A stretch of DNA of 43,420 nucleotides from a virus. Both the position numbers and the translations under genes were made by a program. The notes beneath the pieces were generated by a model. That model saw only the letters and a list, made by a program, of their open reading frames with translations, was not told the DNA's origin and did no database searches. The stretch lies in UHGV virus genome UHGV-1685692. One strand, 5' to 3'. Positions 15,177-15,986 of this stretch are shown piece after piece (position 1 is the stretch's first letter; each line of letters begins with the position of its first letter).

Positions 15177-15485
15177 ATGCAAGAAGAGAAACAACACTAC
15201 CTCTACGTTCTGGTGCCGGAGAATGGAGATACTTTTAAAATCGGCATTTCATGTGGTCCATTGGCACGGTTTAAAGGGCTACAAGTGAGTCCCGATTTTG
15301 CGCTTTCACGGGTCTATCGTGGTACGCGTTTGGCAATAGTTAATCTTGAGCGGGCTTTACACGCAACCTTTTTCCCCTGGAATGCGCCGTGGGAGAAAAG
15401 CGCCGGTGGCGGGCATACTGAATGGTTTACACGAGAGTGTCTTGATAAGGTTTTGGCTCATATCGAATATCTAAATGATATGTAG
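15177..15485 (+). CDS. small GIY-YIG-like / T5orf172-type domain protein
   Basis: 102 aa; YLYVLVPENGDTFKIGIS resembles the GIY...YIG strand pair, conserved R follows, C-terminal GGHTEWF resembles the T5orf172 TEWF motif (assignment from memory). Confidence 0.45.
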   Translation: MQEEKQHYLYVLVPENGDTFKIGISCGPLARFKGLQVSPDFALSRVYRGTRLAIVNLERALHATFFPWNAPWEKSAGGGHTEWFTRECLDKVLAHIEYLNDM

Positions 15486-15581
15486 GGAGGGATTCTCGAG
15501 CGCATTAAGTCGAATGATTTACTTCAGCGTCCAGTAGATGCTGCTCGCTCTTTCGAAAAAGAGCTGGATGTTACTTCTATC

Positions 15582-15986
15582 GTGACTTTCAAAGATGACG
15601 CAGGAATGAGGGACGTGGCTTATGTCTCCATATCTGGCTATGAACCGGACGCGATCCGCGCTCAATGTGAATTGCTGAAAGCAATGTTTATGCTTCGGAC
15701 TAAATATCCCTGGGAGACAAGGCGGGTGTGCTTCCCTATGGAAGAGTTAACCGCCACCATTGATTCCCAGCTTTACCACGATAATCCAGAGAAGTTTTTT
15801 AGCCTTTTAGCCGGTAATGGGCTTAACTGTGTGTCCGGGCTGGGGCGAAGTAGAATCCAACATGCCTCGCTCTTCGGTCCCTTCTTTTACGATCGACACG
15901 GGTACTTTGAGGCTGAACTTCCGGCGCTTACGCGTGCTATAGATACTATCGATTTCGAACGATTATTCGCTGCTCTTAGCAAATAA
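15582..15986 (+). CDS. hypothetical protein (second gene of the incA-parA insertion; GTG start uncertain)
   Basis: 134-aa ORF followed directly by a strong terminator; no motif recognised. Confidence 0.4.
   Translation: MTFKDDAGMRDVAYVSISGYEPDAIRAQCELLKAMFMLRTKYPWETRRVCFPMEELTATIDSQLYHDNPEKFFSLLAGNGLNCVSGLGRSRIQHASLFGPFFYDRHGYFEAELPALTRAIDTIDFERLFAALSK

Follow-up and report, generated by a model that had tools for sequence, protein, structure and literature searches.

A T5orf172-type gene split by an amber codon in the p0111-type replicon cassette of a P1-like phage-plasmid: a candidate homing or origin-directed nuclease

Two kinds of T5orf172 nuclease are the closest described parallels to the gene reported here. 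The ICP1 protein Odn (gp88) is an origin-directed nuclease in which an initiator-like domain aims the T5orf172 domain at the iterons of a rival (PMC8263062, PMC10448857), and its E180A mutant cannot cleave (PMC8263062). T5orf172 homing endonuclease genes are recognized by a nuclease joined to a DNA-binding module, by their variable occurrence and unstable alleles, and by a site beside essential genes at the boundaries of genetic exchange (Barth et al., PMC10448857). Here we describe a T5orf172-type gene at positions 15177-15986 of the UHGV virus genome UHGV-1685692, a stretch of 43,420 nt that we refer to, in its whole length, as the window and that belongs to a P1-like (Punavirus) phage-plasmid. 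An earlier note on this DNA had read the region as an insertion of two genes between control iterons and parA. Our analyses indicate a single gene, interrupted in this copy by a nonsense codon, that forms the last element of a replicon cassette and may encode a nuclease acting against rival replicons.

P1-like phage-plasmids spread extended-spectrum beta-lactamase (ESBL) and other resistance genes. The IncY and p0111 replicon types are used for their typing and frequent switching between the two is known, but to our knowledge nobody has explained its cause. Across 15177-15986 the window is 100% identical to a plasmid of E. coli strain 190 (NZ_CP020522.1, 95,146 bp) and approximately 99% identical to the phages RCS47, SJ46, JL22 and others. 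P1 genes surround the region, with upfB, ppfA and upfA on the left and parA, parB and gene 23 on the right. The gene is already present in databases as a "GIY-YIG nuclease family protein", and in JL22 it has been mentioned, as gp57, as an unknown gene accompanying repA' (p0111) (PMC9603915). A literature search returned no function, domain or linkage analysis of the RCS47-type gene, and no paper linking GIY-YIG or T5orf172 to P1-like or p0111 elements.

Open reading frame (ORF) calling on the window yields two ORFs, of 102 aa (15177-15485) and 134 aa (15582-15986), exactly as the earlier note had listed them, and the sequence-identical RefSeq record NZ_CP020522.1 annotates two coding sequences (CDSs). 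The conclusion that these are two genes does not hold. Both ORFs lie in one frame of the + strand, where 15177-15986 comprises 810 nt, or 270 codons, and the TAG at 15483-15485 is the sole internal stop. In RCS47 codon 103 is TGG (Trp103) and a single 269-aa CDS is annotated (YP_009624912.1). The window differs from this intact CDS at 5 of 810 nt, one of them being the G to A change at 15484 that makes the amber codon (W103amber). Alleles were counted among 5426 complete E. coli genomes, the sample used for the E. coli counts throughout, with exact 41-nt queries in which every 28-mer seed covered the variant. TGG was found in 398 genomes and TAG in 8, which leaves 398 of 406 copies uninterrupted at this codon, and all divergent homologues are single proteins of 269-296 aa. 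The apparent two-gene structure is therefore a rare nonsense allele, and 15177-15986 holds only one gene, which in its intact relatives has 269 codons and a stop. For annotation, this means that the paired CDSs in RefSeq records such as NZ_CP020522.1 and those of the O111/O157 plasmids represent one gene carrying a nonsense codon.

In the sequence itself we saw neither a convincing start nor a convincing ribosome-binding site for the second ORF. Since the amber codon also falls between the catalytic domain and the presumed targeting domain, the window copy is most likely non-functional: at most the 102-aa catalytic domain would be made without its targeting domain, and the coding region downstream of the TAG is probably not translated as part of a protein. 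Programmed read-through of the amber codon, or its suppression, was considered and set aside, since no suppressor tRNA was found in the window, the part of the 95-kb plasmid that was scanned, and the TAG allele is rare and clade-restricted. A two-gene or toxin-antitoxin pair was rejected because there is one frame with a single TAG.

Sequence analysis and modeling show the intact protein to consist of a T5orf172 nuclease domain that has kept catalytic-type residues, a short linker and a winged-helix domain. The N-terminal, GIY-YIG-like domain (residues 1-102, 15177-15482, + strand) matched Pfam T5orf172 (PF10544) over residues 8-85 of the first ORF with E=8e-7 and 29.9 bits against a cut-off of 20, with a weaker MUG113 match and a faint Tox-URI2 match in the same range. 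The T5orf172/GIY-YIG assignment made in the earlier note is thus borne out, so that its overall interpretation stands as regards a nuclease-type domain and falls as regards a separate gene pair. The protein also matched phrog_681 ("endonuclease", E=1e-9) and, over its full length, PHROG 2876 ("unknown function", E=8e-193); NCBIfam gave no match. Structure searches recovered T5orf172 proteins in BFVD, including Odn, and the domain is predicted to adopt the GIY-YIG alpha/beta fold. It carries the Y-x-Y strand, the K/Y-x-G strand, the Arg, the catalytic Glu equivalent to Odn E180 and the E-x-F motif. E58, within the motif E-x-x-L-H, is the residue that aligns with E180 of Odn (taken from NC_015157), and Y8, Y10, K21, G23, R31, E58, H62, E82 and F84 are invariant among Odn and four lineages of the protein that are 25-44% identical.

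The C-terminal domain (residues 104-269, encoded at 15486-15983 on the + strand) was characterized by modeling. AlphaFold2 (AF2) predicted two domains for the intact protein (pLDDT 72), and the C-terminal domain modeled alone folded as a winged helix (pLDDT 75, pTM 0.73). Its best fold matches were the WH1 domains of iteron initiators, although the scores were weak and generic winged-helix proteins scored nearly as high. Based on the model, this domain is probably DNA-binding. No viral structure matched both domains.

The gene is part of a replicon cassette. When the window was compared with P1 using blastn, homology was found at 11803-13803 (94.8%) and 16053-19000 (98.7%), and between these flanks a 2.25-kb block of the window stands in place of a 1.49-kb block of P1. 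This block, at 13804-16052 on the + strand, is a p0111-type cassette occupying the place that the IncY cassette has in P1 (P1 locus L001:2007-3497), with no similarity to P1 DNA except for one 59-nt patch. It begins with five origin (incC-equivalent) iterons at 13821-13919 on the + strand, with the core TTGACTATACGCGA and a spacing of 21-22 nt. These are followed by repA' (14000-14884, +), which encodes a 294-aa p0111-type initiator of the Rep3/RepB family, as annotated in NZ_CP020522.1, that is 41% identical to P1 RepA. An incA-equivalent array of six iterons comes next at 14887-15141, two on the + strand (14887-14924) and four on the - strand (15004-15141). The nuclease gene lies beyond the last of these (15128-15141), and an intrinsic terminator, GCCCC-TGAAC-GGGGC followed by T6 (15994-16016, +; -11.9 kcal/mol, z=-2.8), completes the block. 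The right boundary, at 16052, is approximately 36 nt beyond the terminator and 66 nt after the stop codon. The nuclease gene is therefore the last element of the p0111-type replicon cassette. An additional iteron-like copy, TTGACTATAAGCGA, with one mismatch to the core, was seen at 14604-14617 within the repA' CDS.

The earlier note was right about the terminator and about the location of the gene between the incA iterons and Ppar/parA. Its view of the region as an insertion into a compact backbone is correct in so far as canonical P1 has no such block, but it is the whole cassette that has been replaced, and the arrangement with the gene is the commonest one. P1-like gene 23 was found in 771 of the 5426 genomes (approximately 14%), and the nuclease gene was present in 412 of these 771. 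The p0111 repA' was found in 415 genomes and the nuclease gene in 412, a linkage of almost 1:1, while 153 genomes had the gene-less P1-type incA-Ppar spacer (at least 80% coverage). As for the presence or absence that the note had asked about, P1 lacks the gene and nearly all p0111 repA' genes are accompanied by it. The 213-bp incA-Ppar spacer of P1, the counterpart of approximately 0.9 kb in the window, showed no trace of the gene by tblastn (best E=0.38), and a gene relic in that spacer was rejected on this basis. An insertion of foreign composition was also rejected, as GC content is flat across the region (0.42-0.48), as was a structured RNA, since no Rfam match was found in the region at E<=1.

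The position of the start codon is conserved as well. The ATG lies 20-31 nt past the last incA iteron in four of four lineages, which leaves no room for an independent promoter, and we infer that the gene is expressed from within or through the RepA-bound iteron array. Seven copies of the nuclease gene and eight of repA' were located on chromosomes (for example NZ_CM148631.1, 4475398-4476207, and NZ_CM169485.1, 5134011-5134820); these could be integrated P1-like elements or assembly joins. A preprint reports S. Agona with a chromosomally integrated plasmid in which the p0111 repA is present and phage genes are absent.

Database searches showed the full-length family to be narrow and confined to one slot. 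A word-indexed search of 5.8 billion proteins recovered one full-length divergent relative (P0004, 44% identity). In an exhaustive phmmer search of 1.84 billion representatives P0004 was again the sole full-length match, and approximately 70 others matched the N-terminal domain only; two of these (P0010 and P0011) align over the whole length. Together with searches of genome contigs, four full-length lineages were found, and a scan of species-representative genomes gave 2 loci only. P0004, P0010 and P0011 are all encoded on P1-like contigs in the same slot, in the order RepA, iterons, gene, parA, parB, gene 23. Full-length relatives occur only in P1-like elements, at this one locus.

The slot is occupied next to three RepA types (loci L009, L010 and L011, variants absent from PLSDB), with homologs 28-44% identical to the window protein. 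Between the window and L009, RepA is 83% identical, ParA 89% and gp23 80%, while the nuclease protein is 44% identical. L010 has an IncY-like RepA (83% to P1) and a nuclease homolog 28% identical to the window protein, and in L011 a third type of RepA, 42-49% identical to the others, is accompanied by a homolog 30% identical. The nuclease protein thus diverges much faster than its neighbors. L009 and L010 are nearly identical in ParA (100%), ParB (98%) and gp23 (99%) but differ in RepA (41%) and in the nuclease protein (29%), which indicates that the nuclease gene moves together with repA and the iterons, as a single unit of exchange.

Two more distant relatives were observed on plasmid-like contigs. 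One is encoded next to relaxase, TrbM and MobC (L015, JGI 3300048575, a 50-kb contig, 6001-6879) and the other approximately 3 kb from Rep3-ParA-ParB (L016, Logan SRR28248353, 6001-6909). These proteins of 290-300 aa have only the T5orf172 N-terminal domain in common with the nuclease protein (35-40% identity), which may point to a wider, plasmid-associated subfamily of T5orf172 proteins whose C-terminal domains vary.

Allele data revealed both constraint and decay. Nine alleles, picked to take in the most divergent ones, carried 21 synonymous and 21 missense segregating changes; pN/pS was 0.29 and similar in both domains, and the gene is under purifying selection. Three independent nonsense alleles were found. 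W103* is present in 8 genomes (strain 190, six pig isolates from one study and one mink isolate), S112* in 28, mainly Shiga toxin-producing E. coli (STEC) O111/O157/O103 and including the p0111 reference plasmid NC_013370, and Q228* in 13, on SJ46-like plasmids. Together they represent 12% of approximately 412 E. coli copies, and approximately 88% are free of these three nonsense codons (103, 112 and 228, the only ones in this tally). All three leave the T5orf172 domain intact, which with three events is not significant. Selection for split domains, suggested by a clustering of nonsense codons in the linker, was rejected for the same reason.

Other disrupted forms were encountered as well. In phage vB_EcoM-673R5 (L002, ON470615.2, 1169-1976) two deletions of 1 nt, one within a T5C4 run and the other within a G-run, turn the gene into a pair of overlapping CDSs; the deletions may reflect sequencing error at homopolymers rather than genuine frameshifts. 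The E. coli plasmid NZ_AP027538.1 (231 kb) has the final 258 nt of the gene alone (31339-31596); this is a truncated copy, and its large host plasmid is probably a cointegrate. A 197-aa ORF of an E. coli plasmid (P0005, 108-kb contig) is chimeric, with an unrelated 78-aa N-terminus joined to the C-terminal domain of the nuclease protein at approximately residue 105, in the inter-domain linker, and an early stop at residue 223. It looks like a rearrangement with its junction in the linker. A 168-aa protein (P0003, 229 members) was discounted as a further type of disruption, since the one contig examined ends within it and no real allele exists there.

Our favored explanation, to which we assign a probability of about 45%, is a nuclease of the homing or origin-directed kind that gives the replicon cassette linked to it an advantage over competing P1-like replicons. 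Expressed from within or through the RepA-bound iteron array, the intact protein would act as an endonuclease directed to a particular sequence, a site that rival P1-like replicons contain and its own cassette lacks. Once a molecule was cut, its repair or its loss would lead to preferential inheritance of the linked cassette. In the window, W103amber parts the catalytic domain from the presumed targeting domain and most likely leaves the copy inactive. Several of the homing signatures were recovered. A nuclease domain is fused to a separate domain that is DNA-binding by predicted fold only. The gene shows presence and absence at the same site, P1 (IncY) being without it and L010, whose RepA is 83% identical to that of P1, having a homolog. 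It stands at an exchange boundary, the right end of the cassette at 16052, and the alleles W103* (8 genomes), S112* (28) and Q228* (13) fit a cycle of decay. In Salmonella P1-like elements, 17 switches between IncY and p0111 were counted on a 193-tip tree and described as "frequent switching" (PMC11165635). The purifying selection on both domains and the fast divergence of the protein relative to its neighbors also speak for this explanation.

Several points weigh against this explanation. That the T5orf172-winged-helix family cleaves and homes is something we infer. The family was found at a single locus in one type of element, with neither spread to multiple sites nor paralogous copies in our searches, whereas classic homing endonuclease genes reach many sites. 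Cassettes of the p0111 type have the gene almost without exception, and no empty-site polymorphism was seen among them. No sigma-70 promoter of its own was predicted 5' of the ATG on the + strand. A derivation of the C-terminal domain from RepA, as in Odn, was rejected: hhalign against five RepAs gave a probability of 0.2%, no Pfam match (Rep_3, RepA_N or others) was obtained even at E<=10 and no PDB sequence was matched. Finally, CapR shows that domestication can turn a T5orf172 protein into a DNA binder that does not cleave (PMC10448857).

A bolder version of the favored explanation is that each type of P1-like cassette (p0111, IncY-like and the third type) carries a cognate T5orf172-winged-helix nuclease that cuts the iterons or origin of its rivals, or the empty incA-par junction. 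We regard this extension as doubtful. If true, it would amount to an "incompatibility nuclease" that actively drives replacement of replicon cassettes, a mechanism of plasmid competition distinct from iteron titration or handcuffing, and it would account for the frequent switching between IncY and p0111 as well as for the predominance of p0111.

The precedent of CapR leads to the alternative that survives best, although we consider it unlikely: a domesticated, non-cleaving accessory factor of the replicon that binds DNA in or near the iterons or Ppar. Such a factor would tune copy number, handcuffing or par expression, much as the repressor CapR, a T5orf172 relative, acts (PMC10448857). The fixed 1:1 linkage with repA', the co-variation with RepA and iteron type, the start codon 20-31 nt past the last iteron in all lineages and the purifying selection are consistent with this role, as is a winged-helix domain whose best, if weak, fold matches are the WH1 domains of iteron initiators. 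Catalytic-type residues, including the equivalent of Odn E180, are nevertheless invariant at 25-44% identity, which would be unexpected in a pure binder, and P1 replicates, controls its copy number and partitions without such a gene. In addition, 12% of natural copies carry nonsense codons on plasmids that are still maintained, so the gene is dispensable for maintenance.

A nuclease that serves the lysogen in defense or exclusion, degrading the DNA of unrelated incoming phages, satellites or plasmids without homing, seems to us rather improbable. Nuclease domains of this family are used in conflicts between mobile elements (Odn, PMC8263062), and the fast divergence relative to neighboring genes, the distant N-domain relatives on plasmid-like contigs and the location on a prophage and plasmid would all suit this role. 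On the other hand, PADLOC-DB 2.0 gave 0 families at E<=1, by which a known defense system was rejected, and the gene is single, with its own terminator and no partner genes. It also lies inside the replicon cassette and not in a variable "defense island", and its diversity follows RepA type.

More improbable again is a decaying selfish remnant of no present function, kept by its tight linkage to an essential replicon. Such a remnant would explain why the window carries a broken copy, why nonsense alleles of at least three independent origins account for 12% of copies and why P1 does without the gene. A pN/pS of 0.29 in both domains and the approximately 88% of copies without the three nonsense codons argue against it. 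Moreover, four lineages that are as little as 25-30% identical have preserved both the motif residues and the full-length architecture, which requires long-term selection.

Least credible is a pair of separate genes, a small stand-alone GIY-YIG protein and a partner in an operon such as an addiction or defense pair, since the two called ORFs and two RefSeq CDSs share one frame with a single TAG between them, codon 103 is TGG in 398 genomes versus TAG in 8, the divergent homologs are all single 269-296-aa proteins and the second ORF has no convincing start.

The cassette is flanked by P1 genes. To its right lies the P1-type par region, common to P1, with Ppar/operator, parA and parB (16053-18369, +; 98.7% DNA identity to P1, features from the P1 annotation); parA occupies 16155-17351 and parB 17368-18369, and both proteins are 100% identical to those of P1. 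DNA identity to P1 is lower on the left, at 94.8% over 11803-13803, than on the par side. Upstream of the replicon are a PAAR-motif protein (UpfC homolog, 11552-11836) and UpfB (11788-12633). Three tRNA genes were found on the - strand at 5280-5355, 7356-7431 and 7434-7509, with the anticodons CAT, TGT and GTT, a trio that we take to resemble the P1 tRNA set. The MOB-suite replicon label in PLSDB for p0111-type P1-like plasmids at loci L004, L006 and L019-L023 (NZ_CP020522.1, NZ_CP045829.1, NZ_CP122941.1 and others) is "IncHI1B", which looks like a mis-typing of the Rep3/RepB-family repA'.

Four points appear to be new here: that the split ORFs are one gene, that its product combines a T5orf172 domain with a winged helix, that gene and replicon cassette are near-obligately linked with several types of RepA, and that there is a parallel with homing endonucleases and Odn. 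The p0111 cassette has a conserved nuclease-type gene at an exchange boundary, and next to other types of RepA the slot is filled by divergent versions. This makes the gene a concrete, testable candidate for what drives the replacement of cassettes and the competition between related replicons. If it does so, the T5orf172 homing and Odn theme would reach beyond lytic phages to plasmid replicons.

Among known systems, the gene itself has been recorded (YP_009624912.1 of RCS47, PHROG 2876, JL22 gp57), at 99% identity and with annotation as a single 269-aa protein, whereas the window copy is W103amber. The IncY replicon of P1 (NC_005856, annotation of Lobocka et al.) has the same order of origin iterons, repA, control iterons and Ppar-parA-parB, but its RepA is 41% identical, its iterons are different and it has no nuclease gene. 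Free-standing GIY-YIG/T5orf172 homing genes (T4 Seg, the I-TevI architecture and those of ICP1; PMC10448857) have in common with the window gene an N-terminal catalytic domain of approximately 100 aa, a linker and a C-terminal DNA-binding domain, the last of these putative here. Like the window gene, they are intergenic, next to essential genes and at the edge of a recombinationally exchanged block, they are present or absent between relatives and they decay recurrently through nonsense alleles. They differ in that the window family is confined to one locus and fixed in its cassette type, and in that the second domain of T5orf172 homing genes is mostly a zinc finger (87% have CapR/DUF723/DUF4397 zinc-finger modules; PMC10448857), whereas a winged helix is predicted in the window protein. 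Odn and the Odn-like T5orf172/RepA_N coliphage proteins share with it the T5orf172 domain and the catalytic Glu (Odn E180, E58 here). Further likenesses to Odn are an association with modular replicons that swap as RepA-plus-iteron units and frequent inactivation in natural isolates. The winged-helix fold of the second domain may be another, its resemblance to replication initiators being weak in our case, with generic winged-helix proteins scoring nearly as high. The domain order is reversed, with the nuclease N-terminal in the window protein, and the sequence homology of the DNA-binding domain to an initiator that marks Odn is not seen in the C-terminal domain here. Odn is a gene of a lytic phage that targets a satellite, while the window gene is carried inside the replicon cassette of a phage-plasmid.

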